DNA of 24,000 nt. Source: Desulforegulaceae bacterium. Its GTDB lineage: Bacteria; Desulfobacterota; Desulfobacteria; Desulfobacterales; JACKCP01. The notes beneath the pieces were generated by a model. It did not search any database, was not told the DNA's origin, and saw nothing but the letters and a program-made list of their open reading frames with translations. Both the position numbers and the translations under genes were made by a program. Within the stretch, counting starts at the first letter, position 1. Every line of letters starts with the position of its first letter. The DNA lies in assembly GCA_034006035.1 (NCBI GenBank), contig JAVETN010000001.1:228392-252391 (forward strand), in the 5' to 3' direction. Positions 2,377-18,749 of this stretch are shown piece by piece.

Positions 2377-3205
2377 AACTTACCCCCTCTTCATCTCCAA
2401 TACGCTTTTGGATTGCGAGTGAATATCTGTCTTTGGCAAAAAAACTGATTCCAAAAATCCACCCAATATTTTTTGAGGTTTTAATTTTTTCTTCATATAA
2501 AAAGTCTTCTTTTTCAATATAAAGTTTTTCATCTCCTGTTATACTTGAAACTCTTGGTCCCAAAAAAACTTTTATATGATCAGTCGAGCCAGTCAGTACC
2601 ACCCCTGCTTGAAGTTCATCAAGATCTGCTTCATAAGTTAGATTGTTTCTTCCCTGTTTTTTAGCATCTATGGTTATTTTATTGTATTTAAAATCAAGAT
2701 GGGCATTTAGATGTTTGAAAATTGAATTAACTTCTTTTTCAAACATTTTAAAGGCCAATCCTCCTCCAAAGCTGACCATTGAATCATCTTTTACATGAAA
2801 TTTACTTGGAGAGGTATACAAACCACTTATTGTTTCGTCCAGTATCATTAAGTCTGATTCAAATTTCCCAAAACCTGCTTTACCGTAAATTAAAAAATTG
2901 TCAAAAAATAAAAAACCTGCCTCAACTTCATTGAGATCAAAGGTATTATTGGAGCTCCTTGTTCTGGAATAATGCCTGTGATCATCTGTAGAGTTCTTGG
3001 GTTTGTGCAAGAATGTTTTTATTTGTTTTGGAAAATCGTTTTCTTGGTGATCTCTTCTGATAAGGATCTGAAACCCCGATAAAAATTTACTATCCTTGTT
3101 TTCAGTGTAAGAAAAAGAATTGATTCCTGAAACAGGGGCAGATAAAACTGAAACAGAACTTAATGGATATAATAATATAGAAATGAGTAACCATATTTTT
3201 TTCAA
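2354..3205 (-). CDS. Outer-membrane beta-barrel protein (OmpA/porin-like small barrel)
   Basis: 283-aa ORF with signal peptide MKKIWLLISILLYPLSSVSVLSA. It shows alternating amphipathic strands and a C-terminal VSFEAQIKF ending in Phe, typical of an OMP beta-signal. The start is TTG (3205..3203) with GGAGG 8 nt upstream. Confidence 0.8.
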   Translation of the reverse strand: MKKIWLLISILLYPLSSVSVLSAPVSGINSFSYTENKDSKFLSGFQILIRRDHQENDFPKQIKTFLHKPKNSTDDHRHYSRTRSSNNTFDLNEVEAGFLFFDNFLIYGKAGFGKFESDLMILDETISGLYTSPSKFHVKDDSMVSFGGGLAFKMFEKEVNSIFKHLNAHLDFKYNKITIDAKKQGRNNLTYEADLDELQAGVVLTGSTDHIKVFLGPRVSSITGDEKLYIEKEDFLYEEKIKTSKNIGWIFGISFFAKDRYSLAIQKRIGDEEGVSFEAQIKF

Positions 3206-3250
3206 AAAAAGAACCTCCTTGATGTAAAAATTTGTTTGGAGGCAAAAAAC

Positions 3251-3760
3251 TTAATCATTGAAAGATGATATTCTTATATTGCCTGAAATTTCGGCTTTAA
3301 ACCCTTCCACAGTGATGCTGCCAAAACTCTTCCCGTCATTCATGAATTTGACACCGTCTTCCCCTTGAATTGTTATTGATCCAATATGGTATCTGTCTAT
3401 TTGGACCAAAGACTTGTCCAGTTCCACATTTATTCCACTGGTCAATCTACCTGTATAAGGATCAATTGAAGTGGTTTGATTTATGGAAACTGGATTGTCG
3501 AGGAAGGTCTTTCCTGAATACACAATTCCTTTAATCAGCAAAGACGCAGGATTCCCGTCGGTGCCGTCGTCATCCCTGAAAATTAAGTTCTCTGCAGTCC
3601 AGTCAATTCCAAGAATATTGTCACTGCTAATTCTAATTCCTGACTGTCCTGTCAAGGTCTTCATTTTTTCAGGAGAAACCGGCGAAAGAGCAATGGCTTG
3701 TCCAGCGGTAAGGATTATTATAGATACCATTATTGTTGCTATGTATGAAAACTTGGTCAT
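3251..3760 (-). CDS. Small secreted GQxG-motif protein (fifth paralogue of the cargo family)
   Basis: The ORF track starts at a TTG at 3799, but ATG 3760..3758 has a perfect AGGAGG 6 nt upstream and yields a clean signal peptide, MTKFSYIATIMVSIIILTAGQAIA. After the signal peptide comes SPEKMKTLTGQSGIRISSDN and later DDDGTDG. Both motifs are shared with the genes at 10746..13886. Confidence 0.8.
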   Translation of the reverse strand: MTKFSYIATIMVSIIILTAGQAIALSPVSPEKMKTLTGQSGIRISSDNILGIDWTAENLIFRDDDGTDGNPASLLIKGIVYSGKTFLDNPVSINQTTSIDPYTGRLTSGINVELDKSLVQIDRYHIGSITIQGEDGVKFMNDGKSFGSITVEGFKAEISGNIRISSFND

Positions 3761-3794
3761 AGCTGACCTCCTATCTGTAAGATCAAATCTCACA

Positions 3795-4110
3795 GGCAAC
3801 CCGGCTAGCCTTAAATTAATAAGGTCCCGCAGCTTTCCGTCCCGGAATTACTTCCGGTTTGGCTAAAGAGGGCGGCCCGGCTGACCATAAATTCTGGCCC
3901 CGTGGCTTTCCGTCCCATGGTCACCCAGTGGTTTGGCTAGTTATTCTGACTCTCTTGGCAACTCGGCTGACCTGAAAAATTCAGGCCCCGTAGCTTTCCG
4001 TCCCGGGATTACTCCCGGTTTGGTTTTTACAAAGTGTACAGGTGGCTAGGCTGACCTTGAGTAAACAAGGTCCCTTGGCTTTCCGTCCCGGAGTTACCTC
4101 CGGTTTGGCT
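3795..4110 (-). repeat. Four tandem copies of a GC-rich structured RNA element in the 5' leader of 3251..3760
   Basis: Units lie at 3795..3864, 3871..3938, 3957..4025 and 4041..4110. The minus-strand consensus is AGCCAAAC-[P1 hairpin with GNRA loop]-GACGGAAAGCY-RYGGG-[P2 hairpin]-CAGCC. P1 variants are CCGGAG-GUAA-CUCCGG, CCGGGA-GUAA-UCCCGG, CCGGAA-GUAA-UUCCGG and CCACUGG-GUGA-CCAUGG, so the stem changes are compensatory. Unit 4 is about 57% G+C by hand count, against AT-rich flanks. Confidence 0.75.
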
Positions 4111-4155
4111 CTGGTATCCTTTGGTTTGAATTTCACCCTTAATCGTTTTTTGCCT

Positions 4156-4205
4156 CCATGCAGATTTTTTTATTTTCATAAAAAGATCTGCATGGCAGTT
4201 TTTTT
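4156..4205 (+). terminator. Strong hairpin plus T-run; canonical intrinsic terminator only in the plus orientation, function unclear
   Basis: ccatgcagat (4156..4165) pairs perfectly with atctgcatgg (4186..4195), and T/A pairs extend the stem inward. A T-run at 4199..4205 follows on the plus strand. On the minus strand the stem is followed by AGGCAAAAAACG, with no U-run. No plus-strand gene lies upstream. Confidence 0.4.
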
Positions 4206-4257
4206 CAAAGAACAGTTCTTACCTGAACATTGCTTTTACAGCAATTGGCCTGAAGCC

Positions 4258-4287
4258 GGAACAAAGACCTGATAATTTAATCAGGCT
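4258..4287 (-). terminator. Weak candidate terminator after the TolB-like gene
   Basis: Minus strand: CCUGAU-UAAAUU-AUCAGG (arms 4280..4285 and 4268..4273), followed by UCUUUGUU. The stem is short and the U-tract imperfect. Confidence 0.3.
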
Positions 4288-4364
4288 AAGTCTTTATCTA
4301 ACAAGCTAAATCTTAACTTTTATAGATAATAAGAAAAAGAGCCTTAATTGATTAATTATCTGAT

Positions 4365-5846
4365 TTATTTAATTATACATTGATATTTAACAAAATCCAA
4401 TCCATTTACACCAAGAGAATGAAATTTGTTTTCAGATTCAAAAATTATTGGAAATTTTGATATAAAATTGTCTATTGGTGTTTTTGTTTCAATACCGTCA
4501 ATATTTAAGATCCATTTTTTATCATCATGGCTTGCACAATAAGCAAGGCGATTTCCTTTGGGACTGAACTTGGGCAGGCCGGTGATAGCCTTGTATTTTC
4601 TTCCCTCATTTTCATTTTTTACCATTACAACGTTTTTTCCATCAAATGCCATATAGGCAATTTCATTTTTTACAGGATTAAATATTGGCTGTTTTACATC
4701 AAAATAGGCTTTGCCTTCTTTTTTATCCCAAACTACAAACCATCCCTTTTGTTTTAAAAAAGCTCTATAAGCGTAGTTTCTACCATCGGTTGAAAACTTA
4801 ATAAGACCTGAAGAGTCGTACTCTTTTTCTTTTTTACCGTTTATCACAATTGTGGGTTTGTCTTTTTTTATTCCCGGATATCCGTATGAATTTCCAGTAT
4901 CAGAATATGCAATAGGACCAAGAGTATCGAATTTGAATTCTTTTTTTCCGTTTACAACCATCTGCCAGTCTTTTCCTGTGTTTGCAGGATAGGAAAGAAT
5001 TGTTCCTTGCGGGTTGTAAAAAGGTTCGCCAATGGTCTTGTAGGGCGGGTGTTCATTAAAGTTTTCTAGCAAAATGAGGTTGTCTTTATCATTTTGAACC
5101 ACACAGGCGAAATTGCCCAATTTGGAAAATTTTAAAAGTATGGCATTTTTATAAGGTTTTGATTCTTTTTCATCAATAAAGACCTGCCAGCCATTGTCCT
5201 TAAAAGCTATGAACCCTAGCTTTGAAGAATCAGGGCTGAAAACAAGTTCATTTATATTTTTGAAAGGCCCATATTTTTTGTCCTGGCAAATTACATATCC
5301 TTTGTGTCTGCCTTCAAAGGCAATATAGGCCAGTCTTTTTCCGTCAGGACTGAAAACAGGGTCATTTTTAAATCCGTCAAAACTTTTGCCTTCTCTTCCA
5401 TTTATTACAACAAATTGTTTGTCACCTTTTTGGGCTATATAGGCAAAGTTTTTACCATCATTACTTGTTACAAGATTGCCTGTACCATCATATTTTTTTT
5501 GTTCCTCCCCATTGATTACTGCAAAATAATTGGAGTTAGAAATTGCTGTAAAAGCAGAGATTCCTGAAAAAGGAGCAAAAAATGGGGTGCCTTTCCCAAG
5601 GCTTTGATAGGGTCCATAGACTTTTGAATTTATCTGGGCAAACATTTTTTTATCTTTTAAAAGGGTTATTCCTAGTTTGTCGTAATCAGGAAAGTTTGAG
5701 GAAATATCAAGAATATTTGATTGCTCTGGAGGTGTTGATAAGCTTATTATTTTTTCATTTATTTCAAGGATTTCGGCATTAATCAGGGGGGAATAAATTA
5801 ATGACAGGGCAAAGACAATGGTTGGAACATTAAATCTGATTTTCAT
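4365..5846 (-). CDS. Periplasmic TolB-like (PD40/WD40-like) beta-propeller repeat protein
   Basis: 493-aa ORF with signal peptide MKIRFNVPTIVFALSLIYSPLINA. A unit of about 45 aa repeats: FSPDGKRLAYIAFEG, FSPDSSKLGFIAFKD, SNDGKNFAYIAQKG, FSTDGRNYAYRAF, FNPVKNEIAYMAF, FSPKGNRLAYCAS. Each is followed by (V/I)INGKE-x-K-x-(Y/F)D. Confidence 0.8.
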   Translation of the reverse strand: MKIRFNVPTIVFALSLIYSPLINAEILEINEKIISLSTPPEQSNILDISSNFPDYDKLGITLLKDKKMFAQINSKVYGPYQSLGKGTPFFAPFSGISAFTAISNSNYFAVINGEEQKKYDGTGNLVTSNDGKNFAYIAQKGDKQFVVINGREGKSFDGFKNDPVFSPDGKRLAYIAFEGRHKGYVICQDKKYGPFKNINELVFSPDSSKLGFIAFKDNGWQVFIDEKESKPYKNAILLKFSKLGNFACVVQNDKDNLILLENFNEHPPYKTIGEPFYNPQGTILSYPANTGKDWQMVVNGKKEFKFDTLGPIAYSDTGNSYGYPGIKKDKPTIVINGKKEKEYDSSGLIKFSTDGRNYAYRAFLKQKGWFVVWDKKEGKAYFDVKQPIFNPVKNEIAYMAFDGKNVVMVKNENEGRKYKAITGLPKFSPKGNRLAYCASHDDKKWILNIDGIETKTPIDNFISKFPIIFESENKFHSLGVNGLDFVKYQCIIK

Positions 5847-7647
5847 GGTTTATCTGATCCTTTTCTACTTTTTTATCTTTTTTAAATGGATTTAATTTTT
5901 TTAAAAATTTTTTTACTTTACCTGCAGCGTGGTGGAGCATTTCCTGCTGATGATGCAGCATTTCCATTTGAACAGAAAGGGGCATGGTAACTCCAAAAAG
6001 TGCAATATAAAGATAGGTTTCCTGCTCATAATCCAGCCCTGCATAGGGATTGTAAACTATTTTGGTAAAATCTGTTGAGTTCATATTGGTGCTTGAGTTG
6101 TTTGGAACTTTAAGTGAATCATTAAACAAATAGCCAAAGCCAAAATCCAGGGTAACATTTTTAGGCAGATGAAGGGAAAATCCAGCAGCATAAAAAGTCA
6201 TATCAGGGAGAAAATAAAGTGCATCAATTTTATCTTTTGGAAGAGATGCAGGTCGAAATTCATAACCGCATCTTAAAGTAAGCCAGTCTTTTGGATAAAC
6301 TTCAAGACCAACTCCCCAATGCCAGGTATCTTCCATTTCCCTTTTAACAATAAGATTATTATCTCCGCCTGTATATCCAAGAAGTTTAGCTATCCTGAAA
6401 AGCTGAATTCTTTGATCAAAAGTAAATTTATCTTCTTTTAAAGCAGCCCAGTTTGACCAGTGGAGATCTGCTGTGATCTGAATTTTTGACCAGGGTTTTA
6501 GTTTTATACCCATATCAATTCTTCTTGGAAAAAGCTGGGTTGCTGTCACTCTTCCAGTTTGAGAAGGCACTGCTTTGTAGGGCATATCAAGCATCCCTGC
6601 TGTTGTCATTGTATATTCTGTGCTTCCGTTCCAGGCAATCTGTCGCTGCCATTGTTCACTATAGGTAAATTTGTATTTTCCTGAAAGTTTTGCTTTTGCC
6701 TGACTCTGGTAAGAAAGGCCAAATCCAAACCAATGGGTTGGTTCCCATAAAAGACCAAGATTTACCGAAGGGGTAAAGTCATCTCTTAGGTCCATTTCCA
6801 TGCTTGTGTTGTGCTCATAGGGACCAAGTCCGCCTCCAAGCCAGGGGGCTGGAAGAGTCAATTGTGAAACAACAGGTATTTCAAGATCTCTTGTTGCATC
6901 ACCAATAACCCTTGTAAGTCCGACAAGCTCGTTTGGGGTTCTTTGATCAAGGGATATTCCCATTGCTGTTTGTCCAAATCCCACTGAAATTCCAAGTGAG
7001 AGTTGGTCTGAGGCTTTATAGCTCAAAGTTGGAGCAGCATAAATAAGATGCTGAAGGTAAAGAGATTTACATCCAAAACGAAGAGGATCCCCTGGATCAT
7101 TATGGGTCATCCCTCCTCCGTAGGGAGCGTAGTTTGTGTATGCAAAAGTCCACTTTGAGTCAGGCTTTCTATGGGATAGTCCAAGGCTCACAGCAGCAAG
7201 AAAATCTATTGGACCAAGAAAAGGGATGTACATTTTGGTTGAGGAGTTTGTGCCTTTTGTATTCCTTAATGGATCAGGGCCTCCATGGTTTGAATCCGGG
7301 TCATTTATATTAGGTTCAGCATTTGGCCCCCATTTGTCGCCCATAAAACCTTTAAAGTCTTTATTTTCTTTAAAGCTCCCTTTTCTTTTAATTATAGGTA
7401 TACCAAAACCGTTGGAAAACATTGCTCCTTCATCAATTTTTGATAATCCTGCAGGATTGAAATGAGCAGACATATGACCAGGAGGAGAGGCTGTGCATGC
7501 ATTTGCAAGACCTAAAGCTCTTGCATCAATTGCAGGGTTTTCATTGAAGGTTGCCAATGTTTCTTTTGATAAAAACAAAACAAGAACAATTGTAATTAAA
7601 AGTTTTTTTATTCTCATGTTTTTTGTTTTTGGGCTAAGGAGTTTCAT
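5830..7647 (-). CDS. FadL/OMPP1/TodX-family outer-membrane transport barrel with an unusual basic/His-rich C-terminal extension
   Basis: 605-aa ORF. Its N-terminal region ARALGLANACTASPPGHMSAHFNPAGLS matches the FadL hatch-domain pattern (G-x-A ... NPAG-L). The body is long and beta-strand-rich. An alternative start is M11 (ATG 7617..7615, giving MRIKKLLITIVLVLFL); neither start has a clear SD. It overlaps the next gene by 17 nt. Confidence 0.8.
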   Translation of the reverse strand: MKLLSPKTKNMRIKKLLITIVLVLFLSKETLATFNENPAIDARALGLANACTASPPGHMSAHFNPAGLSKIDEGAMFSNGFGIPIIKRKGSFKENKDFKGFMGDKWGPNAEPNINDPDSNHGGPDPLRNTKGTNSSTKMYIPFLGPIDFLAAVSLGLSHRKPDSKWTFAYTNYAPYGGGMTHNDPGDPLRFGCKSLYLQHLIYAAPTLSYKASDQLSLGISVGFGQTAMGISLDQRTPNELVGLTRVIGDATRDLEIPVVSQLTLPAPWLGGGLGPYEHNTSMEMDLRDDFTPSVNLGLLWEPTHWFGFGLSYQSQAKAKLSGKYKFTYSEQWQRQIAWNGSTEYTMTTAGMLDMPYKAVPSQTGRVTATQLFPRRIDMGIKLKPWSKIQITADLHWSNWAALKEDKFTFDQRIQLFRIAKLLGYTGGDNNLIVKREMEDTWHWGVGLEVYPKDWLTLRCGYEFRPASLPKDKIDALYFLPDMTFYAAGFSLHLPKNVTLDFGFGYLFNDSLKVPNNSSTNMNSTDFTKIVYNPYAGLDYEQETYLYIALFGVTMPLSVQMEMLHHQQEMLHHAAGKVKKFLKKLNPFKKDKKVEKDQINHENQI

Positions 7648-7661
7648 TTCAAATCTTTAAA

Positions 7662-8807
7662 TTAGAGTTTAAAATCAAAGGGTATGCTTAAACTAAAACT
7701 TACATCTGAGTTACTATTGAAAAGTCCTATATTTAAACTTGTATTAACTGAGCGGGTGCTTGAAATTCTCCAATTTGTGCCTATGGAAAGTGAAGATGAA
7801 TAAGATGTGGGAGAAGTGCTTTTTCCTATGTTCCTCCAATAGTAATCCGTTGAGTAGCTATATGTATACTGAAACCCCACACTAACTGAAACAAGATATG
7901 ATAGGGAATAACCCATCCCAAGATTGGCACTTATTTGGTTTCCCGGACTTACTTTTTCAATATAAATTCCCTGTTCTTTTTGTTCTTTGTCGGTATTGTA
8001 CTTTGCATCGTCCACATCCATATTTTTGTAAAAAGAAATTCCGCCAAAGGCAATAACCGGGTCAATTGATTTGCTGAAATTTGCACCGGCAAAGACAGTG
8101 TAGTATCCATTTCCTATTGCAACCTCATCATCACCGTCCATTTTATAGGGATTGTCTCCAAGGGGGACAATTATCCCTGCATTGAGAATTGTTGTTGGAA
8201 TTCCTTCTCTTGGCTTGAAGGGTTGGTATTGGATGTTAAAGCTTGGGTCTCCTATTCCACTTCCGTTTTTTGAACCTTTTTGACTGTCTATATATTCATA
8301 GGAAAAGGGGATATTTGAAGAAAGGGTGAGGTTTTTTAAAATCGGTACTTTAAATGAAAGAGAATTGGAAAGTTTATGGGAGTTTAAATGCTTTACCATG
8401 GTGCTTGTTCTTCCGTTTTCATCTTCAACTGATTGCAATTGGTCATAGGTGTCTCCTGTATAGCTTATTGAATAGGAAATGTTTAAAAGACCTGGAGTTG
8501 CAAGAGTGTATTCACGGCCGGCAGCATCAAGAATATCTTCGTCTTTTTGTTTTTTTTCTTCATCAGTTTGTTTAAGCTCGCTCATTACTTCCGAAGCTTT
8601 TTGTTTTTTTTCAATCTCAAGTAAGAGCTGTTCAAGCTTTTCCAGTCTTTCTTTTATTTCTGGAGAATTTTTACGATCGATTTCATCTGCATTGAGGTTT
8701 GAATAAACTGGTAAAAGAATAAATAATAAAATTATTAAATAGAAAAAAGGAAGTTTTTTGGTTGCTAATTGAAGTTTTGTAGCCATTTGCCTTTGCTTTC
8801 CAATCAA
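7662..8807 (-). CDS. Outer-membrane beta-barrel with N-terminal coiled coil (FapF-like architecture), paralogue B
   Basis: 381-aa ORF. After the signal peptide comes a heptad-like charged helix (EIKERLEKLEQLLLEIEKKQKA), then AAGREYTL and an amphipathic-strand barrel containing a GIGDP motif; it ends IPFDFKL. The codon at 8807 is TTG. ATG at 8786..8784 (MATKLQLATKK...) is an equally good or better start. Confidence 0.8.
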   Translation of the reverse strand: MIGKQRQMATKLQLATKKLPFFYLIILLFILLPVYSNLNADEIDRKNSPEIKERLEKLEQLLLEIEKKQKASEVMSELKQTDEEKKQKDEDILDAAGREYTLATPGLLNISYSISYTGDTYDQLQSVEDENGRTSTMVKHLNSHKLSNSLSFKVPILKNLTLSSNIPFSYEYIDSQKGSKNGSGIGDPSFNIQYQPFKPREGIPTTILNAGIIVPLGDNPYKMDGDDEVAIGNGYYTVFAGANFSKSIDPVIAFGGISFYKNMDVDDAKYNTDKEQKEQGIYIEKVSPGNQISANLGMGYSLSYLVSVSVGFQYTYSYSTDYYWRNIGKSTSPTSYSSSLSIGTNWRISSTRSVNTSLNIGLFNSNSDVSFSLSIPFDFKL

Positions 8808-9904
8808 AGAATAAAATTAAAAGGTATTCTGAATTTAAAACTAAAATCTTCGTCATTATTTGTGAGCCCAATACCCAGTTCCATATAAATTTTTCTTTTT
8901 TCTGTGATTTGCCAGGCAGTTCCTAGCAAGAAAAGCGAGCTGGTGGTTGAAGAAGAAGAAAGTTTTCCTCTTCCTCTCCAAGTATAATCAGTTGGGAATT
9001 GATAAATAAATTTACATCCAAAGCTTATGGATACATTTTCTGAAATAACATAGCCCATTCCAGCATTAAAACCAGCCTCATCTCCAGGGTTTATTTTTTT
9101 TAAATATTCACCTGTTTCGCCAAGGTAAATTGAGTTTTTAAAATCCAGTCTTGAGTTTTTAAATTTGTATGAGTAAAAAAAGCTTCCATAAACAAGGGTA
9201 GGGGAGACTTTTTTACTCATCCCAAGTCCTAGGTTGAATGTATAAACACCTTCTCCTGTTGGGAATTCTGTTTGGGGGTTTATTTCATAGGGGCTTCTTC
9301 CCATGGGAAAGGTAAAACCAGAACTTATTGTAAACCCGGGTTTGTTGTCTTGTTTTTTGAAGGGCTGGAATAAAATTCCCATATAGGGGTCTCCAAAATC
9401 ATCCATATCAGCAGTTTCCCCCTGAATATCATCATAGATTGATACAAAAGGCAGATCAATTAGAAAGGAAAGATTGTTTTTTAAAGGATATTCAATTGAA
9501 ACAGTATTTACCATTCTGTGAGTTGCTTCACGCTCAAATGAAGTCCCTGATTCTTCTGCTGAACTTATTTGGTCATAGGTTTTTCCATAATATGAAAAAC
9601 TATAATCTACTCCGACTACTCCTTTGGGTCTCAGTGTATATTCACGGCCCGCAGCAGATAAAAGTTTTGAATACTCGTCTTGTTCAGATAAAAAATCTTT
9701 TTTGGTTTTTTCGGTCAGAGTTTTTTTGTTTAGTTCTTCTGCACGTTTTTCAAGCTCTATGATTTGTTTATCAAGAAGGTCTTGGTTGATATCTATTTCA
9801 TCTGCAAAACAGGCAACAAAGGGCAGGGTTAAAAAACACAAGAAATAAAAAACATATAATTTGCTGAATTTATTGGCCTTGATCATTTTTTGTAAGTCTT
9901 CCAT
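8804..9904 (-). CDS. Outer-membrane beta-barrel with N-terminal coiled coil (FapF-like architecture), paralogue A
   Basis: 366-aa ORF, colinear with 7662..8807 (both have AAGREYTL; DFGDPY vs GIGDPS; the ends are RIPFNFIL vs SIPFDFKL). The coiled-coil segment is LLDKQIIELEKRAEELNKK. An alternative start at ATG 9886..9884 (MIKANKFSKLYVF...) forms an ATGA overlap with the C39 stop, suggesting translational coupling. Confidence 0.8.
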   Translation of the reverse strand: MEDLQKMIKANKFSKLYVFYFLCFLTLPFVACFADEIDINQDLLDKQIIELEKRAEELNKKTLTEKTKKDFLSEQDEYSKLLSAAGREYTLRPKGVVGVDYSFSYYGKTYDQISSAEESGTSFEREATHRMVNTVSIEYPLKNNLSFLIDLPFVSIYDDIQGETADMDDFGDPYMGILFQPFKKQDNKPGFTISSGFTFPMGRSPYEINPQTEFPTGEGVYTFNLGLGMSKKVSPTLVYGSFFYSYKFKNSRLDFKNSIYLGETGEYLKKINPGDEAGFNAGMGYVISENVSISFGCKFIYQFPTDYTWRGRGKLSSSSTTSSLFLLGTAWQITEKRKIYMELGIGLTNNDEDFSFKFRIPFNFIL

Positions 9905-10626
9905 GGTCCTGTTTCATCCAGCCTGTAGGTTTCAATTTTATGGGTTGGATCTATTGAGGGAGTCATCAGGGTTTCCTGAAATTCTTTGTCAATATATCTT
10001 AAATCTCTTCTTGAAAGCTTAAGGTTTGAGATTGTTTTTTCTTTATCTGCCCAGATGATGAACATTATATTGTCATCCCAGATTTTTTTAAATTTATCCA
10101 TTGAGTAGCTGGAATTCCCCAGGAAAGGATCAGCAAGAAAAACATGATCTTTATAAATTCCTTTTAAAACAACAAAATGTTTATAATTGTATACCTTGAT
10201 TGGAAGGATACAAGGCCAGTACTCATTGTTATTCAAGTCTTCCAGTTTAGCTTTGTAGCCCCCGCTTTTATAGCCTATGGCGTCGAGAAACTGCTGCATA
10301 TCCCATAAAGAAAAAGCTCTGAGTTGTCTAATCTGCTCTTTATCGCCAAATTCCATGAGACCTCTTATAACTTGTTTTTCGCTTAAGTTTTCGTTGAGAT
10401 AAAAGTTTAAAAGAGTTGCAAGAGCAGCAGAACCGCAGCTGAAATCATGCTCCTGCTTTACTATATGTCTGAAGTTTTCTTCAGTAAAAGGGATGATATC
10501 TTCTCTGATGCGAATTTCACCTTTATAGCCTGAAGAAAAAATAGCAATTTTTTTATCTGCTCCTGCTTCAGGAAAAAAATTTGGGATTAAAGCAATTAAA
10601 ATTGCAAAACCTATGGCAAAGTGCAT
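9883..10626 (-). CDS. Stand-alone exported C39-family cysteine peptidase (FapD/FilB-like), catalytic residues intact
   Basis: 247-aa ORF. Q58-x5-C64-G (VKQEHDFSCGSAALATLLNFY) matches the C39 oxyanion Gln plus the nucleophile Cys. H150 and D166 sit in KHFVVLKGIYKDHVFLADP, the C39 pattern H-f-v-V ... DP. It has a hydrophobic N-terminus (FAIGFAILIALIPNFF) and is not fused to an ABC transporter. Confidence 0.85.
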   Translation of the reverse strand: MHFAIGFAILIALIPNFFPEAGADKKIAIFSSGYKGEIRIREDIIPFTEENFRHIVKQEHDFSCGSAALATLLNFYLNENLSEKQVIRGLMEFGDKEQIRQLRAFSLWDMQQFLDAIGYKSGGYKAKLEDLNNNEYWPCILPIKVYNYKHFVVLKGIYKDHVFLADPFLGNSSYSMDKFKKIWDDNIMFIIWADKEKTISNLKLSRRDLRYIDKEFQETLMTPSIDPTHKIETYRLDETGPWKTYKK

Positions 10627-10745
10627 TTTTTTAATTAATCTTTTTTTAAAGTTTTTATGTTCTCATATCCTAAACACAATTTATCTTTCGGGCAACAAAA
10701 ATCTGCATTGAATCCTTGTTAATACAAAAAGTTTTTTATATAAAT

Positions 10746-11399
10746 TTAAGGCTGATCCCACCAATGGTTTGGAGCAAAAGCGTTTTGAATATTTCCTTCA
10801 CTAAAACCAAGAACAGAATGAATTCCCTGATTTCCTGCCTGGGGATTTAGAATAAGAAAAAAACCCTGTCTTTCTGAACTTGAGTCAAAAGAAAAGTTTT
10901 TGGAGCCCAGGTTTTCTCTTGAATATTCCAGCGGAGGAGAGTTCCCACCTTCAAGAGCTGGGTGAAATGTTCCTGTAAATGAGTTGAAATTACCGGAAAT
11001 GTTTCCATTGAGCATATTGGAACCTATTATAAGTCTTTTAAGGGTTGGATTGGCAGAGTTTAAATCGTCAAAATCCGCTTTTATAATAAGTCCGTCAATT
11101 GTTAAATTTGCAGTATTTGTTCCAATACTTATATTTGTCCAGTTTTGATCCCAGCCGTTTGCACCTTCTTTTGCATAATAGCCAAGCTTGATGGATTCAA
11201 TTTCTGTAAAGGTTTCAATATGGGTATTTAAAAATATTCTTGTTGTTGTGTTAGTGGTGGTAAAATCTGAAAAAGAAATTTGTCCTGTGGTTGTTTTCAT
11301 TTTTTCTTTTGAAAGTTCCTCAAGGGCAAAAGAAAAATTTACAAAAATACTGAAGAAAACAATTAGAATAAAAAGAAAGAATAGTTTAGTTTTAATCAT
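10746..11399 (-). CDS. Small secreted GQxG-motif family protein (divergent member)
   Basis: 217-aa ORF with signal peptide MIKTKLFFLFILIVFFSIFVNFSFA, followed by LEELSKEKMKTTTGQISFSDF. Its ATG forms a 4-nt ATGA overlap with the upstream stop (11396..11399). Confidence 0.8.
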   Translation of the reverse strand: MIKTKLFFLFILIVFFSIFVNFSFALEELSKEKMKTTTGQISFSDFTTTNTTTRIFLNTHIETFTEIESIKLGYYAKEGANGWDQNWTNISIGTNTANLTIDGLIIKADFDDLNSANPTLKRLIIGSNMLNGNISGNFNSFTGTFHPALEGGNSPPLEYSRENLGSKNFSFDSSSERQGFFLILNPQAGNQGIHSVLGFSEGNIQNAFAPNHWWDQP

Positions 11400-12292
11400 A
11401 GATTACCCAAGTTTCTTCCAGGCACTTCAATTGTTAGTCTATGTATATTTATTCCGTCAATTGCAACGGCACCAAAATCTTTATTTCCCAAGTGGATATT
11501 TTCAATTCTTAGAGAGCCAGTGATTGGGGCTGAAACATAAATAACTGGTTCTGTATCAGATCCTGTTGGATCATTGGTTGCTCTTTGTCCTATATCAAAG
11601 GTGGCAGGAGAGTTGGTTTTAAAATTACCTAATTTAAATTTCCCTGAAGGCTGCCAGGTTGAAGGGTTTTCAGGAATGCCTGAAAACGAATCTGCAATAA
11701 ATAGGTTTTGAAATCCAAGCCAGTTTCCATTGGCTTCCGGTCCGTAGTCAAATTTAAATGAATCTACCTTAAGCTGGAATCCTGTCTCAAAATCTATGCC
11801 TGAACCATGACCTCCAAAGTAAAGATTCCATTTTGGAAAACCTGTTCCTATGATCTCCATGCTTCCAATGGCTGATTGGTTAAATTCCAGTTCACCAATT
11901 TTAATAAAGGACTGAACCTCAAAATCATCAGATTCAATTGAAATATAGGGGTTTGGATATCCGCCTGAAGCTGGGTCAGAAGGGCTGGCTATATCAATGA
12001 GGATTTCTCCCATAATTCCGTCATTGTCAAAATCAACATTGCCTGTATTATAAGTGGTTAAGGTTTTTACGTTTTTAAAATTGAGATAACCCGGGGTTGG
12101 TTTATTTAAGTCATCAATTAATTTGATTTGTGAATCTTCATTGTAAAAAACTGCATTGTCAATGGCAATAGAAATACCTGCCTGGGCAGTTTGAGATTTT
12201 AACTCGTTTTCACTCATCAAGGATATTGCGAATAGACTTGAATTTGTCAGGCAGATAAAAATTATAATTGTAGTAAGGTTTTGTAAAAACAT
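11396..12292 (-). CDS. Small secreted GQAG-motif family protein
   Basis: 298-aa ORF with a hydrophobic N-terminus, then MSENELKSQTAQAGISIAIDNAVFY and DFDNDG. GGAAG lies 5 nt upstream of the ATG. Confidence 0.8.
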   Translation of the reverse strand: MFLQNLTTIIIFICLTNSSLFAISLMSENELKSQTAQAGISIAIDNAVFYNEDSQIKLIDDLNKPTPGYLNFKNVKTLTTYNTGNVDFDNDGIMGEILIDIASPSDPASGGYPNPYISIESDDFEVQSFIKIGELEFNQSAIGSMEIIGTGFPKWNLYFGGHGSGIDFETGFQLKVDSFKFDYGPEANGNWLGFQNLFIADSFSGIPENPSTWQPSGKFKLGNFKTNSPATFDIGQRATNDPTGSDTEPVIYVSAPITGSLRIENIHLGNKDFGAVAIDGINIHRLTIEVPGRNLGNL

Positions 12293-12310
12293 AAAGACTT
12301 CCTATTTTCT

Positions 12311-13036
12311 TTATTTGTTTGGACTTACTTCAACAGTGCCTCCAAAAATTACCTGGGTGGCAGGGCCCTTTTCAATTGTAAGAAGAGTCTGGTTGCTGTT
12401 CATTGCCTCAAAATCAGATCCAGTAAAAAAAACTATGCTTTTTGTTGAGTGTCCAGTTGTGGCTTCAATGGAAGGAAGTTTTGAAATAATTCCTCCTTTT
12501 ATAAGGTTTGGTTCCACTGGGAGAATCCTTGAAATCTCTTTGAGGCCTGAATTTATAACACCCATTGCTGTAAGAAGAGGGCAAAAGTCTGTTGTTTCAA
12601 TTATCAGGGGAGAAAAGTTAACTCCTTTTTCTTTTGTTGATTTCTTATTTTCTTCCCTGTGTATTTTATTAATTTCTGAATTATAATTTTTAATTAAATT
12701 TTTATTTAAACTAAGATTCCCGATTTGTTCACCAAAATCTTTTTTAAGTTTGGCATTGGAATATTTTCCAAAATCAGTTACAGGTTTGAAGTATAATCTA
12801 GAACCTTGATCATCTGAAATTATCTTTATTCCTGCTTTTTTAATTGAGCCGTATCCGTCGGTGTCAGTATAGATTATGGTACCATATTTAACTTTTACTA
12901 TAATTTCTTCTAGCTCAATTGCTATTCCAGCCTGGCCTCTTATTTTTTTCAAATCATCCTGGTGAAGTATTTCTTTTGAGAAACAGGGAAAAATAAAAAC
13001 AGAAAAAATAATTAATGTTGCAATTGTTTTTTTCAT
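12311..13036 (-). CDS. Small secreted GQAG-motif family protein (closest paralogue of the major-subunit candidate)
   Basis: 241-aa ORF with signal peptide MKKTIATLIIFSVFIFPCFS, then HQDDLKKIRGQAGIAIELEE and YTDTDGYG. Its C-terminus LLTIEKGPATQVIFGGTVEVSPNK parallels ALITIEKSGTSTMAILGGTLEIAPH of 13113..13886. GGAGA SD. Confidence 0.85.
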   Translation of the reverse strand: MKKTIATLIIFSVFIFPCFSKEILHQDDLKKIRGQAGIAIELEEIIVKVKYGTIIYTDTDGYGSIKKAGIKIISDDQGSRLYFKPVTDFGKYSNAKLKKDFGEQIGNLSLNKNLIKNYNSEINKIHREENKKSTKEKGVNFSPLIIETTDFCPLLTAMGVINSGLKEISRILPVEPNLIKGGIISKLPSIEATTGHSTKSIVFFTGSDFEAMNSNQTLLTIEKGPATQVIFGGTVEVSPNK

Positions 13037-13061
13037 TTTTTTTTCTCCTTGGTTCAGGTTG

Positions 13062-13095
13062 AAAAAAACCCCGCCTTTATATTAAAGACGGGGTT
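13062..13095 (-). terminator. Intrinsic terminator immediately after the major-subunit candidate gene
   Basis: Minus strand: AACCCCG-UCUUUA-AUA-UAAAGG-CGGGGUU (arms 13089..13095 and 13067..13073, with inner pairing), followed by a run of U (13062..13068 are A on the plus strand). It sits between 13113..13886 and 12311..13036. Confidence 0.75.
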
Positions 13096-13112
13096 AGTTT
13101 ATGACTTACTTA

Positions 13113-13886
13113 TTAATGAGGAGCTATTTCAAGGGTTCCACCTAGGATAGCCATTGTTGATGTACCTGATTTTTCAATTGTGATTAGGGCATGATTTGCG
13201 TTAAAGTGTTCCTGGTCAGCTGTTCCGTATGAATCTGTAACTATACCAGCAGCCGCATCCCAGGTACCGTTTCTTAATTTAATGGTTTTGAAATCTACTG
13301 TTGAATAGGTTTTGATTTCAACTGTAGGAAGACCGATTACAACACCACCAACTGCAAGAGCTGATGCAGGAAGAGTTGCTGCGTCCATTCCAGTTGTATT
13401 GTAGTTCCATCCAGCTGTAAGGGCCTTACATGTTCCAACATCAATTGTTAGTGGAGAAATACCTGTTGTAGTTCCTGCCATCTGGCCATTTGTAGGATCT
13501 AGAGTGCCACCGGCAATAGCTGCTGCAACACCAGCTGATTCGATAATACCAATGTCTTCTGTGTTACCAAATGTGGCTCTTAGTGCATCTACTCCATAAA
13601 TATCTGCATTAAGTATTGCATTTATTGTTATAAGTTTTTGCATTTCTTCTGCCTGGTCTATCATGATACCGGCTGCACCAGTCATTCCGTTTACACCATC
13701 GGTATCCCAGAATGTGCTGTCTGCTAAACTTTTTTGATAAATTACAATACCATCAACTGCAATAGAAACCCCAGCCTGACCTGTTGCAGATCTAAGCTGT
13801 GAATTGTCCATTTTTTCAAGTGCTGATGCTGCCATTGGCATGGTGAGAATTGCTGCTACTGCTAAACCTACGATAAAACGTTTCAT
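13113..13886 (-). CDS. Secreted Ala/Gly/Thr-rich GQAG-motif protein; candidate major structural subunit
   Basis: 257-aa ORF with signal peptide MKRFIVGLAVAAILTMPMAASA, then LEKMDNSQLRSATGQAGVSIAVDGIVIY and FWDTDGVNG. It is first in the block, with a strong SD (AGGAGGAG), its own structured leader and its own terminator. It is visibly more GC-rich than its neighbours. Confidence 0.85.
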   Translation of the reverse strand: MKRFIVGLAVAAILTMPMAASALEKMDNSQLRSATGQAGVSIAVDGIVIYQKSLADSTFWDTDGVNGMTGAAGIMIDQAEEMQKLITINAILNADIYGVDALRATFGNTEDIGIIESAGVAAAIAGGTLDPTNGQMAGTTTGISPLTIDVGTCKALTAGWNYNTTGMDAATLPASALAVGGVVIGLPTVEIKTYSTVDFKTIKLRNGTWDAAAGIVTDSYGTADQEHFNANHALITIEKSGTSTMAILGGTLEIAPH

Positions 13887-14149: not shown

Positions 14150-14190
14150 TAAATTAAAAAGAACAGTGTTTACTGCTTGAGTGAAAGATT
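14150..14190. repeat. Box A of a duplicated intergenic sequence (core TGTTTACTGCTT at 14167..14178)
   Basis: aaattaaaaagaacagTGTTTACTGCTTgagtgaaag resembles box B. It contains the near-palindrome AACA-G-TGTT. Confidence 0.5.
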
Positions 14191-14471
14191 CTCATAACCA
14201 GGGTTTTGATGTCAATAAAAAAAATAATAAAAAGTGGATTTTTTTTAGTCTTATTTTTAAATATTTGAAATTAATAGGAATAACATTGTTTATATTTCAC
14301 AGATTTTTAGTGTGAAAACTCTTTTTAAGAAATAAATTGGAACTTAGGGGTCATTTTGGAGGGGTGCTGTTAAATTTTTTAGTTTGGAGTTTGGGCTTTT
14401 ATTAGGATAAGTTTCAACTGGATTTGTACAAAAAATTGTTTAGGGAATCTGAGGTTAAAATACAAATAAAT

Positions 14472-14512
14472 TTAATTTAAAAAAACAATGTTTACTGCTT
14501 ATGTTCAAAAGT
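14472..14512. repeat. Box B of the duplicated intergenic sequence (core TGTTTACTGCTT at 14489..14500)
   Basis: aatttaaaaaaacaaTGTTTACTGCTTatgttcaaaag carries an 11-bp palindrome, AAACA-A-TGTTT. Both boxes are followed by shared words (aaataataaaaagt; ccagggtt), though in a different order. Confidence 0.5.
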
Positions 14513-16910: not shown

Positions 16911-17030
16911 AGTATAGAATTTAATTTAATTCAAAGCTTGGTGCTTGGGTTTTTTATCATCTTTGTTGATTTATTAATATTTTTTTGGTTGTATAGTTGT
17001 TTACTCGAAAGGTTTAAGGAATAAAATTTG

Positions 17031-18749
17031 ATGAAGAAACCTCGAATACTGTTTGTTTGTGAAAAAGATTTTAAAACTTTGAAGCTGGCAGTTCAAATAG
17101 CCTTGGATAAATATGGTGAACACGCTGGTTTTGAGGGATGTTTTACAGGAGAAGTTTCAAACAAATTATCTGATAAAAAACTTGAAGATTTTAATTTAAA
17201 AACTCCTTTTGCGTTCAATGGCAAATCCTTTGACATTATAATTTCACTTTGTAGTACAAAATCAGAAAAGTTTCGCCAGTTTGCAGGATTTCCTGTGATT
17301 GTTGACTGGTCTGATAAAATTGAGTCCGCGGTTAAAGAAAAAGCCCTTGGCCCAATACTTGAAAAAGAACTTCAATGCTTTTTTGACTCAGGTTATTTTT
17401 CCGGGATAAAAAATTATAAGTTCAATATGGATCTTATAATAAACTCTCTTGGAGATGCGGTAATAGCCCATGATTTGAATAGAAGGATTTATTATTTTAA
17501 TAAAACAGCAGAACAGATTACAGGATACACTCAGGAAGAAGTTTTGGGTAATGATTGTCATGATGTTTTCCCTTCTCCAATTTGTGGGAAAAACTGTTCT
17601 TTTTGTGTAGGGCTATCTCCTGATCAAAGTTTTAAAAGCAAATCCTATAAAACAACATTTCATGATAAGTCAGGAACAAGAAAAGAGCTTAAGGTAAATA
17701 TAATTCCAATCAGGGATTCTTTTAATATTCTAAGGGGAGTAACTGCTTCTATTAAAGACCTTACTGAACTTAATCTTGCCAAGGAGCAAATACTTAAAGA
17801 GCAGAATTTTAATGGAATTATAGGTAAAGATCCTGAAATGCTAAAAGTTTTTCAGCAGATAAAAGATCTTGCACTCTATGATACACCGGCTCATATCTAT
17901 GGTGAAACAGGAACAGGAAAAGAGCTGGTGGCAAGGGCAATCCACAATGAAAGTATAAGAAGTTCTCTGCCTTTTGTTCCTATAAACTGTGGAGCACTTC
18001 CCGAGGGCTTAATTGAAAGTGAACTTTTCGGTCATGTAAAAGGTGCTTTTTCCGGAGCTATAAGAGATAAAAAAGGAAGATTTGAGCTTGCAGATAAAGG
18101 GACAATTTTTCTTGATGAAGTTGGTGAACTCCCTAAAAATATTCAGGTAAAGCTTTTAAGGGTTTTGCAGGAAGGGACATTTGAAAAGGTCGGTGGAGAA
18201 TCAACTATCAAGGTTGACGTAAGAGTTTTAAGTGCAACAAATAGAAATTTGAAACAGGCTGTTCAAAAAGGTGAGTTTAGAGATGATCTTTATTATCGTC
18301 TTAATGTTGTTCCTATTTACCTTGTGCCCCTTAAAAAAAGAAAAAACGATATCCCGGTTTTGTGTGCCCATTTTCTCAAAAAAATTGCCAGCCGCCATAA
18401 ACAGGAAAAACTTGATATTTCCAAAAGAGCCTTAAGTGCACTAATGGACTATGACTGGCCTGGAAATGTAAGAGAGCTTGAAAATATTATTGAATATTCA
18501 ATTATCCATTCTTTAGGTTCTGTGATTGATTTAGAAAGTCTTCCTGAAGAAATTCAAGAAGTTGCCAAAAATAGAGATAAAACCCTTAGAACCAATAAAT
18601 CAAGGGGAAAACTTAACCGGGCTGCTGTTATTTATGCTCTTGAAAAAACCGGAGGAAATAAAACCAAAGCCGCCAAGATTTTAGGTGTTGGGCGGGCTAC
18701 TCTTTATAGATATTTGAATAACAATTCTGTTGATTTTGAAATCGATTGA
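17031..18749 (+). CDS. Sigma54-dependent transcriptional activator (bacterial enhancer-binding protein): N-terminal domain + Cys-rich PAS + AAA+ + Fis-type HTH
   Basis: Walker A is GETGTGKELVARAIH, the sigma54 contact loop is GAFSGA (a GAFTGA variant) and Walker B is IFLDEVGE, with ESELFGH also present. The C-terminal HTH is GGNKTKAAKILGVGRATLYRYL. A PAS-like segment is DAVIAHDLNRRIYYFNKTAEQITGYTQEEVLG. The ORF track begins at TTG 17028; ATG 17031 with AAGGA upstream is the likelier start. Confidence 0.92.
   Translation: MKKPRILFVCEKDFKTLKLAVQIALDKYGEHAGFEGCFTGEVSNKLSDKKLEDFNLKTPFAFNGKSFDIIISLCSTKSEKFRQFAGFPVIVDWSDKIESAVKEKALGPILEKELQCFFDSGYFSGIKNYKFNMDLIINSLGDAVIAHDLNRRIYYFNKTAEQITGYTQEEVLGNDCHDVFPSPICGKNCSFCVGLSPDQSFKSKSYKTTFHDKSGTRKELKVNIIPIRDSFNILRGVTASIKDLTELNLAKEQILKEQNFNGIIGKDPEMLKVFQQIKDLALYDTPAHIYGETGTGKELVARAIHNESIRSSLPFVPINCGALPEGLIESELFGHVKGAFSGAIRDKKGRFELADKGTIFLDEVGELPKNIQVKLLRVLQEGTFEKVGGESTIKVDVRVLSATNRNLKQAVQKGEFRDDLYYRLNVVPIYLVPLKKRKNDIPVLCAHFLKKIASRHKQEKLDISKRALSALMDYDWPGNVRELENIIEYSIIHSLGSVIDLESLPEEIQEVAKNRDKTLRTNKSRGKLNRAAVIYALEKTGGNKTKAAKILGVGRATLYRYLNNNSVDFEID

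Follow-up and report, generated by a model that had tools for sequence, protein, structure and literature searches.

The 24,000-nucleotide stretch of DNA from a Desulforegulaceae bacterium that was analyzed here (contig JAVETN010000001.1, positions 228,392 to 252,391; referred to below as the window) contains a single string of minus-strand genes, 121..13886, which encodes five exported proteins and a stand-alone C39 cysteine peptidase. Directly after its signal peptide, each of the five proteins carries a 15-residue leader that ends in Gly-Gln or Ala-Gln. We consider it reasonably probable that this leader is removed by the neighboring C39 peptidase and that the mature proteins are then exported through outer-membrane barrels and assembled into a filament. 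A first-pass annotation of the window had proposed such a two-step maturation, with signal peptidase acting first and the C39 peptidase second, and this interpretation is partly supported, now with independent structural data. Removal of the leader is favored on three grounds: the modularity of the leader, which is apparent from the fourth protein, the intact state of the peptidase and of its leader-docking helix, and the start of a solved homologous filament subunit (PDB 9XFV) immediately after the glutamine. We infer from the sequence that the enzyme encoded at 9883..10626 makes this cut.

The five open reading frames (ORFs), and the motifs that had been read directly behind their signal peptides, were all confirmed on the minus strand: paralog 1 (13113..13886, 257 amino acids), paralog 2 (12311..13036, 241 amino acids), paralog 3 (11396..12292, 298 amino acids), paralog 4 (10746..11399, 217 amino acids), and paralog 5 (3251..3760, 169 amino acids counted from the ATG at 3760). 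All other features located within the string are on the same strand. The signal peptides of paralogs 1 to 5 are 22 (13821..13886 in paralog 1), 20, 22, 25, and 24 residues long, and when the signal peptidase is assumed to cut at the AxA-like site, exactly 15 residues remain up to the glutamine in all five proteins. These leaders are LEKMDNSQLRSATGQ in paralog 1 (residues 23–37, 13776..13820), KEILHQDDLKKIRGQ in paralog 2 (12932..12976), ISLMSENELKSQTAQ in paralog 3 (12182..12226), LEELSKEKMKTTTGQ in paralog 4 (11280..11324), and LSPVSPEKMKTLTGQ in paralog 5 (3644..3688). Each leader ends in T-[G/A]-Q, and a beta-strand comes next, with the residues AGVSIAVD, AGIAIELE, AGISIAID, ISFSDFTT, and SGIRISSD following the leaders of paralogs 1 to 5, respectively. 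In paralog 1, the protein would be cut behind Q37 (codon 13776..13778).

Conservation of the leader was assessed in a family set of 223 proteins, which was drawn from 120 database homologs of paralog 1 and from 84 loci encoding relatives of the peptidase, in which ORFs were called and then searched with hidden Markov models (HMMs). A contig scan of genomes with a single C39 protein yielded four close loci only, and the diversity of the set was obtained from a metagenome scan with an alignment. The N-terminal HMM was built from the first 75 residues of homologs, and the five paralogs matched it with E values of 5e-34 to 6e-7 (1.5e-14 for paralog 3). With the final glutamine numbered -1, a pattern of a hydrophobic residue at -7 and [G/A/C]Q at the end was found in 206 of the 223 members. 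In approximately 11 further members, the leader is kept with E, R, K, H, T, or A in place of Q, and Q is found at -1 in about 95% of members. The motif is thus more than a chance occurrence. The leader module reaches from Desulfobacterota to Pseudomonas, including P. aeruginosa, in which the leader DLKAMDDGALSDVTGQ is preceded by AHA and followed by AGISISG.

Position statistics were taken from 63 non-redundant leaders, and of the positions counted, -15, -12, -10, -4, -3, +2, +3, +5, and +7 lie outside the pattern used for selection. The residue at -12 is L, M, V, or I in 100% of these leaders, -15 is hydrophobic in 86%, -10 is D or E in 70%, -4 is V, I, or L in 67% (A in 17% and T in 13%), -3 is T in 76%, and -2 is G in 67% and A in 32%. 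At -7, L or M was found in all leaders, including the 11 variants outside the regular-expression selection, while A occupies -16, which is the -1 position of the signal-peptidase site. On the other side of the glutamine, +1 is A, S, or G in 78% and +2 is G in 90%, and positions +3, +5, and +7 are hydrophobic, alternating in the manner of a beta-strand. The resulting consensus is L(-15)-E-x-M(-12)-s-D(-10)-x-x-L(-7)-k-x-V(-4)-T-G(-2)-Q(-1). A synthetic-peptide form of the leader, and a candidate substrate of the 9883..10626 enzyme, is LEKMDNSQLRSATGQAGVSIAVDG.

The motif had been aligned in the first-pass annotation with classical double-glycine leaders, and this register was retained in part. 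Hydrophobic residues at -7 and -4 and a small residue at -2 are kept in homologs, whereas E(-8) is unconserved and the acidic position is -10. Glycine at -2 holds in four of the paralogs but gives way to A in paralog 3, and the (A/S)G(I/V) strand that had been noted after Q is present in paralogs 1, 2, 3, and 5 but not in paralog 4. The shared D-x-D-G motif further downstream was borne out, as D61, D63, and G64 are invariant or nearly invariant. At -1, double-glycine leaders have G, A, or S, and the present leaders have Q or, rarely, one of the replacements named above.

In the solved LahT150 and PCAT1 complexes, the leader is helical over two turns from -10 to -4, its residues -4, -7, and -12 occupy a hydrophobic groove approximately 20 Å from the active site, and residues -1 to -3 extend into a narrow cleft (PMC6363468; PMC6959990). 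LahT150 does not require E-8 and accepts Thr at -4 (PMC6363468). An AlphaFold2 (AF2) model of paralog 1, calculated from a 66-sequence alignment with a mean predicted local distance difference test score (pLDDT) of 84, placed the signal helix at residues 2–22, a leader helix at residues 28–34 (pLDDT ~62), and beta structure from residue 40 onward. The predicted leader helix corresponds to positions -10 to -4, the same span as in the two solved leader complexes. The hydrophobic register at -4, -7, -12, and -15 fits only if Q is -1, because a cut moved by one or two residues would break it.

The leader also appears to be a modular tag, which would route at least one unrelated cargo domain, that of paralog 4, in addition to the subunit type of the other paralogs; judged from the sequences, we regard this as somewhat probable. 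The family HMM match of paralog 4 is limited to residues 7–40, i.e., the signal peptide and the leader. No Pfam DUF6160 hit was obtained for this protein, its mature domain has no Pfam hit at all, and comparison of an alignment of the mature domain (A6) with DUF6160 detected no homology (hhalign probability 0.2–0.3%). Orthologs of paralog 4 were found in 12 loci. Because one leader is present on two unrelated cargo domains, it is better understood as a recognition tag than as an element of the fold. The mature domain of paralog 4 (10746..11279), with orthologs among loci L001–L024, represents a conserved family of its own, which is marked by TARxFLDIHxETYTEIDS, GWDQxW, and a C-terminal WWDxP. 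Genes of this type were always located immediately upstream of the C39 gene.

The remaining paralogs, 1, 2, 3, and 5, were placed in the DUF6160 family by the HMMs built here. Against Pfam DUF6160 (PF19657, gathering threshold 27 bits), paralogs 1 (32.6 bits) and 2 (27.9 bits) scored above the threshold, and paralogs 3 (26.8 bits) and 5 (25.7 bits) scored slightly below it. Paralog 2 matched the paralog-1 profile over its full length (E 9e-35), and paralog 5, which is small, matched the small-subunit profile A5 over residues 8–166 (E 3e-11). Orthologs of paralog 3 occupy the same position in loci L001–L008, and those of paralog 5 do so in L001, L004, and L007. Paralog 1 is 100% identical to a protein (P0001) from a Desulforegulaceae metagenome-assembled genome (MAG). 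A search of 1.84 billion cluster representatives with the paralog-1 profile returned 805 clusters at E <= 1e-3 and 289 at E <= 1e-10, and these numbers cover the paralog-1 subtype alone.

The connection of this family to a known filament was made through the small-subunit profile A5, which matched chain A of PDB 9XFV (9xfv_A, E 4.7e-10) and to which the paralog-1 family profile (A2) aligned over the full length (hhalign 99.5%, E 1e-22). A direct search of A2 against the PDB sequences found nothing, and 9XFV was reached by the small-subunit profile alone. This entry (EMD-66838) describes the native helical filament named pilus-like-alpha, which was obtained from karst-cave water; the model and the sequence were read from the density, with UniProt A0A257CJ09 as a guide (PMC12956863). 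Its homology to the profiles indicates that DUF6160-type family members do form extracellular filaments. Residue 1 of the 9XFV chain (DGVSIAGD...) aligns to +1, immediately after TGQ, in the profile alignment and in pairwise BLAST comparisons with five Pseudomonas precursors. The last residue, H173, is the C-terminal His of the family, and the ordered 9XFV subunit therefore begins exactly at the proposed cleavage site and extends to the C-terminus. A Foldseek comparison of 9XFV with the AF2 model of paralog 1 gave a weak match (probability 0.54, template-modeling score [TM] 0.2–0.28).

Paralog 1 is probably the major subunit and abundantly expressed, as indicated by the terminator after the gene, the strong ribosome-binding site before the start codon, the higher GC content (approximately 0.40 in the paralog 1 and paralog 5 regions compared to approximately 0.33 around them), and the family C-terminal His. 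The terminator-like hairpin between paralogs 1 and 2 (13067..13095) has a 13-bp stem with 6 GC pairs and a T-run, and its position suggests the usual attenuating terminator behind a major-subunit gene. DUF6160/FilA-type proteins end in hydrophobic-x-hydrophobic-x-[G/A/P]-His-COOH, which is LEIAPH in paralog 1 (13113..13130), KVWGH in Pseudomonas (P0274), and MWAH in 9XFV, and the terminal His is invariant in the paralog-1 alignment. Some members of 550–630 residues (P0383, P0384, P0411, and P0414; 5483..7387 in L002 and 6326..8008 in L007) consist of two or three tandem stretches that match the subunit profile, with a single leader, and may be tip or adhesin variants. A 375-residue homolog (P0013) is attributed to Chilomastix cuspidata in EukProt and is probably a bacterial contamination of the transcriptome of that species.

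The peptidase (9883..10626, 247 residues) is a stand-alone ORF with an N-terminal hydrophobic segment, rather than the N-terminal domain of an ABC exporter, and no ABC transporter was found among the cluster genes. It is composed of a hydrophobic helix at residues 2–17, a disordered linker, the C39 core at residues 47–192, and a conserved tail. The protein matched Pfam C39 (PF03412) with 63.8 bits (cutoff 22, E 1.9e-17) and the NCBIfam models FilB (1e-56) and FapD (3e-35), and a PDB profile search with it matched LahT150 and PCAT1. The core of its AF2 model has a pLDDT above 90, and Foldseek aligned the model with ComA (3k8u, TM 0.83, root-mean-square deviation 2.6 Å) and with the LahT150-leader complex (6mpz, TM 0.80).

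The enzyme had been described as having its own export signal and an intact Q/C/H/D set. The catalytic set was confirmed: Q58 (10453..10455), C64 (10435..10437), H150 (10177..10179), and D166 (10129..10131) are invariant in 49 peptidase homologs and align to Q15, C21, H99, and D115 of PCAT1. The export signal has to be reinterpreted, since the N-terminus resembles an uncleaved signal-anchor and not a classical signal peptide. The hydrophobic segment begins at residue 2 with no basic n-region, acidic residues follow it, and the homologs share no consistent AxA. These features suggest that the segment is retained as a signal-anchor and that the domain lies in the periplasm, which is consistent with FapD. 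The stand-alone periplasmic arrangement is not without precedent: FapD is already known as a periplasmic C39 peptidase, and FapC secretion depends on its catalytic Cys (PMC5557850).

The most conserved non-catalytic motif in the peptidase family is RAFSL[L/W]DM (residues 103–110; RAFSLWDM in this protein), which forms the docking helix and aligns with A55..I59 of PCAT1. In PCAT1, A55 and I59 make a hydrophobic knot with L-7 and L-12 of the leader, and the solved C39 enzymes have a narrow cleft at P1/P2 (PMC6959990). When residue 108 of the docking helix (L or W) was compared with -7 and -12 of the leader in 41 pairs, no clear pattern of covariation was observed. Leader-bearing genes were located directly upstream of C39 in 48 loci chosen via C39, and the arrangement is repeated in loci that were chosen via the subunit. 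C39, FilC, and FilD occurred together in 45 of the 48 related loci with enough downstream sequence.

In the proposed pathway, the subunit would be exported by Sec and cut by signal peptidase I at the AxA site that its sequence predicts, and the 15-residue leader would then be at the N-terminus of the protein. As a two-turn amphipathic helix, the leader would dock in the hydrophobic groove of the C39 enzyme, which is expected to be tethered to the inner membrane and to face the periplasm, and the protein would be cut after Q. By analogy with Fap, the mature protein, which would begin with (A/S/D)-G-(V/I)-(S/T)-I, may cross the outer membrane via the FapF-like barrels, the FadL-like barrel, or both, and may be assembled into a helical filament like PDB 9XFV, a filament that is known for the homolog only.

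Several observations weigh against cleavage of the leader by C39 at this site. No curated double-glycine leader model (bacteriocin, Nif11, and NHLP types) matched the leader, even after Q was changed to G in silico, and the sole model match of the leader with the first strand was to positions 21–43 of NCBIfam FilA. Known C39 enzymes cut after G, A, or S, and a Gln at P1 would depart from this specificity. The conservation straddles the proposed site (TGQ-AGVSI), unlike in classical leader/core systems, in which the P′ side is variable. The 9XFV sequence represents the part that was modeled in density, and a flexible uncleaved leader would be invisible as well. The topology of the peptidase is deduced solely from the charge distribution and the FapD precedent. 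Finally, among the related loci with C39, FilC, and FilD, 19 that include 2 kb or more of upstream sequence contain no leader-bearing gene in the vicinity; either their substrates are encoded elsewhere or the peptidase may have another, universal target.

The leader could instead be an uncleaved targeting or anti-aggregation signal, like N22 of curli CsgA, which is read by the FapF-like or FadL-like machinery or by a chaperone while C39 processes a different protein. Such a role is compatible with the 19 loci that have no local leader-bearing gene, with the conservation that runs past the proposed site into the first strand, with a flexible and invisible tail ahead of the first 9XFV residue, and with the proposal of FapE or FapF as the target of FapD (PMC5557850). 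However, the spacing of the hydrophobic register relative to the small-residue pair fits the C39 docking geometry exactly, the peptidase retains the leader-docking helix, the FilC proteins have no GG-like site, and 9XFV starts at +1 to the residue. We judge the uncleaved signal to be unlikely, though it deserves to be taken seriously. The FilC/FapF-like proteins were also considered as the canonical C39 target, and this candidate was rejected because their N-terminal motif, compared across 62 homologs, has no leader-like register.

It is less probable still that the leader is removed at a neighboring bond or by another enzyme, either between TG and Q with subsequent formation of pyroglutamate or after the (A/S)G pair, and that C39 has another role. 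Glutamine at a new N-terminus cyclizes readily, the +1 and +2 residues (A/S/G in 78% and G in 90%) are likewise a small pair, and one residue of 9XFV may be unmodeled. In contrast, a shift by -1 or +2 would take the hydrophobic residues off the -4/-7/-12 register, which is set by the distance from the groove to the active site. In addition, 9XFV retains D-G at +1 and +2, and no other protease is encoded within the cluster. Signal peptidase I acting between TG and Q was considered and rejected, as this bond is approximately 14 residues past the h-region, which is too far under the established distance limit of the enzyme, and Q at -1 breaks its -1 rule.

We consider it very improbable that the motif has no role in processing and belongs only to the DUF6160 fold, or to the common ancestry of the paralogs, with a coincidental resemblance to a double-glycine leader. 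Amphipathic i/i+3/i+4 patterns are common, and the failure of the double-glycine leader HMMs to match would be expected, but the leader is also found on an unrelated mature domain, was modeled outside the core and with a lower AF2 confidence, and is not part of the solved 9XFV subunit. Modification of the glutamine side chain by a papain-fold transglutaminase or deamidase, by which subunits would be cross-linked instead of cut, is barely credible: transglutaminases do share a Cys-His-Asp papain-like core and small residues flank Q on both sides, but transglutaminase-type chemistry was rejected given that the family has no invariant Lys, that about 11 members replace Q, and that 9XFV does not contain it, and the enzyme is structurally close to true leader peptidases.

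Removal of the leader by the neighboring C39 enzyme thus is the reading that we favor, and it has several consequences. Periplasmic C39 peptidases became known with FapD in 2017, and the present family provides a precise hypothesis, namely a 15-residue leader cut after G/A-Gln, which appears to be undescribed as a periplasmic C39 substrate in the searchable literature. If correct, this would be the first defined substrate motif for FapD-type periplasmic C39 peptidases, C39 specificity would extend beyond Gly-Gly, and docking in the style of double-glycine leaders would have been reused outside ABC exporters. The cluster would also supply the biogenesis genes for the 9XFV filament type, which was given without genetic context in its paper, and the leader may be useful as a periplasm-to-surface tag for surface display. 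More broadly, the DUF6160/Fil loci could make up a separate, widespread surface-filament pathway, in which a modular post-Sec leader is recognized by a tethered C39 peptidase with G/A-Gln specificity, cleavage licenses export through the barrels, and the tag serves as a general periplasm-to-surface signal; we put the chances of this wider proposal at about even.

Tractable hosts are available, as Acinetobacter FilA shares the leader region and a P. aeruginosa genome has the same cluster and leader. In this genome (locus L089, contig MAZI01000039.1), the DUF6160 subunit (P0274), C39, a FilC-like barrel, and a FadL-like barrel follow in order. The cluster, which we take to be PA1759 to PA1765, also contains two MalT/LuxR regulators and a DUF4124/MalM protein, and it adjoins genes for a PAPS reductase, a HAD hydrolase, and a chorismate-binding enzyme. 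For PA1761 and PA1762, the sole mention found was a microarray table that lists them among co-induced "hypothetical proteins" (PMC12431658). Publications that name Fil, DUF6160, or PA1761-65 were found to do so only in the context of vaccines, expression, or microarrays, and no mechanism was found.

The loci without subunit genes, approximately 19 in number, are of gammaproteobacterial type (L026, L033, L034, L038, L042, L044, L061, L075, L084, and others). Downstream of C39, FilC, and FilD, most of them encode a DUF4124/MalM-like lipoprotein that contains the motif YFTWVDxxGR. In several, genes for a DksA/TraR-like zinc-finger protein and for MalT/LuxR regulators are located upstream.

Within the window, the genes of the string are separated by short gaps or overlap by 4–22 nt, and four leader-bearing proteins are followed by C39, two FapF-like barrels, a FadL/TodX-family barrel, a PD40 propeller, the fifth leader-bearing protein, a small outer-membrane protein (OMP), and an LVIVD propeller. 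The first FilC/FapF-like outer-membrane barrel (8804..9904, 366 residues) is encoded by a gene that shares 22 nt with the C39 gene. In this protein, the conserved motif LSAAGREYTL comes after an N-terminal coiled coil, and matches were obtained to NCBIfam FilC (5e-32), FapF (2e-17), and Pfam Phenol_MetA_deg. The second (7662..8807, 381 residues) matched FilC with 4e-42 and FapF with 5e-12. A sequence of the form (V/I)(F/L)xAA(E/G)(K/R)xY(S/T)L is near-invariant between the coiled coil and the barrel in both proteins and in the 62 homologs, and it may correspond to the plug region of FapF. The FadL/TodX-family outer-membrane barrel FilD (5830..7647, 605 residues) matched Pfam Toluene_X with 1.6e-40 and NCBIfam FilD with 3.5e-92. 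The next gene encodes an exported PD40/TolB-like beta-propeller (4365..5846, 493 residues), the position of which is kept in Desulfobacterota loci.

The small outer-membrane beta-barrel protein (2354..3205, 283 residues) gave a weak match to Pfam OMP_b-brl and has orthologs in L001–L011. The last conserved gene of the cluster (121..2376) encodes an LVIVD-repeat beta-propeller of 751 residues with the C-terminal sequence SSSCFINSLF. A terminal CFINS(L/F)F-COOH after a Ser/Gly-rich stretch was observed in two unrelated large exported proteins encoded on the minus strand of the window, this propeller and a PKD/Big adhesin of 929 residues (19846..22635). Orthologs of the propeller in five other MAG loci (L001, L002, L003, L005, and L019) keep the tag as CFINSLF, CFISTLF, CFINSASRDLF, CFIDSVSEGRLF, and CFINSGRP. 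This type of C-terminal tag is covered by no Pfam or NCBIfam model, and it may be an undescribed C-terminal sorting signal.

A long AT-rich region is located upstream of paralog 1. It contains two copies, approximately 320 nt apart, of the 17-nt sequence AAGCAGTAAACA[C/T]TGTT in the minus-strand reading (14162..14178 and 14484..14500), which may be a binding site for a regulator. A sigma-70-like promoter match was also found upstream of paralog 1 (14215..14188). A sigma-54 promoter was considered at this place in view of the sigma-54 activator at 17028..18749, and it was rejected because the matches were no better than chance.

Comparison with known systems suggests, with moderate confidence and on the basis of the gene content, that the locus is an operon of the Fil/DUF6160 type for the biogenesis of a pilus or surface filament, distantly related to Acinetobacter filABCD and to Pseudomonas Fap. 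All four components had their best NCBIfam matches among the Acinetobacter Fil putative pilus models (NF050077–NF050080), although the FilA match was weak and limited to the N-terminus. The gene order of subunit(s), C39, FapF-like barrel, and FadL-like barrel is shared with Fil. The scores, however, are far below the curated cutoffs (FilA at most 25 bits compared to 220, FilB 192 compared to 475, FilC 145 and 112 compared to 630, and FilD 309 compared to 970), which makes the locus a distant relative and not an equivalog of Fil, and the same applies to Fap. The locus further differs from Fil in having five subunit paralogs and a duplicated FilC, and the PD40 propeller, the OMP, and the LVIVD protein are found in place of FilE and FilF.

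As in this locus, Fap has a stand-alone exported C39 peptidase beside a FapF-family barrel with an N-terminal coiled coil, and the substrates are Sec-dependent in both. The scores here were 121 bits for FapD compared to 330 (NF058616) and 63 and 45 bits for FapF compared to 700 (NF058560). Pfam and NCBIfam scans of the neighboring genes detected no homologs of FapA, FapB, FapC, or FapE, and Q/N-rich amyloid repeats are absent from this operon. In contrast to Fap, the locus encodes an additional FadL-family barrel and a beta-propeller, its substrates are folded DUF6160 proteins, and it has a defined leader motif, whereas the FapD substrate and site are undefined. The 9XFV subunit shares YTDTD, IDV, and GLP-like motifs and the C-terminal WAH with the family, but it has 173 residues and comes from a different organism and subtype. 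The paper describing it used the filament only for handedness validation and did not discuss a leader, peptidase, or gene cluster (PMC12956863).

The peptidase shares its fold, catalytic residues, and docking helix with the PCAT/AMS ABC transporters (LahT150, PCAT1, and ComA), and the leaders have in common the hydrophobic -4, -7, -12, and -15 positions, the small residue at -2, and the helix from -10 to -4. Unlike the PCAT/AMS enzymes, this peptidase is predicted to face the periplasm, lacks a fused ABC transporter, and has substrates that also carry Sec signals. The P1 residue is Gln (rarely E, R, K, or H) rather than G, A, or S, E(-8) is missing, and -2 is G or A, whereas classical double-glycine leaders have only G at this position. 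The cargo also differs, as it is a folded protein of 15–40 kDa instead of a peptide. By analogy only, the arrangement resembles the type IV pilus system, in which PilD, a dedicated membrane peptidase, trims a short N-terminal leader from the prepilin next to a conserved Gly. PilD, however, belongs to the unrelated aspartyl class and acts at the cytoplasmic face, and the type IV leader replaces the Sec signal, whereas the leader described here follows one.

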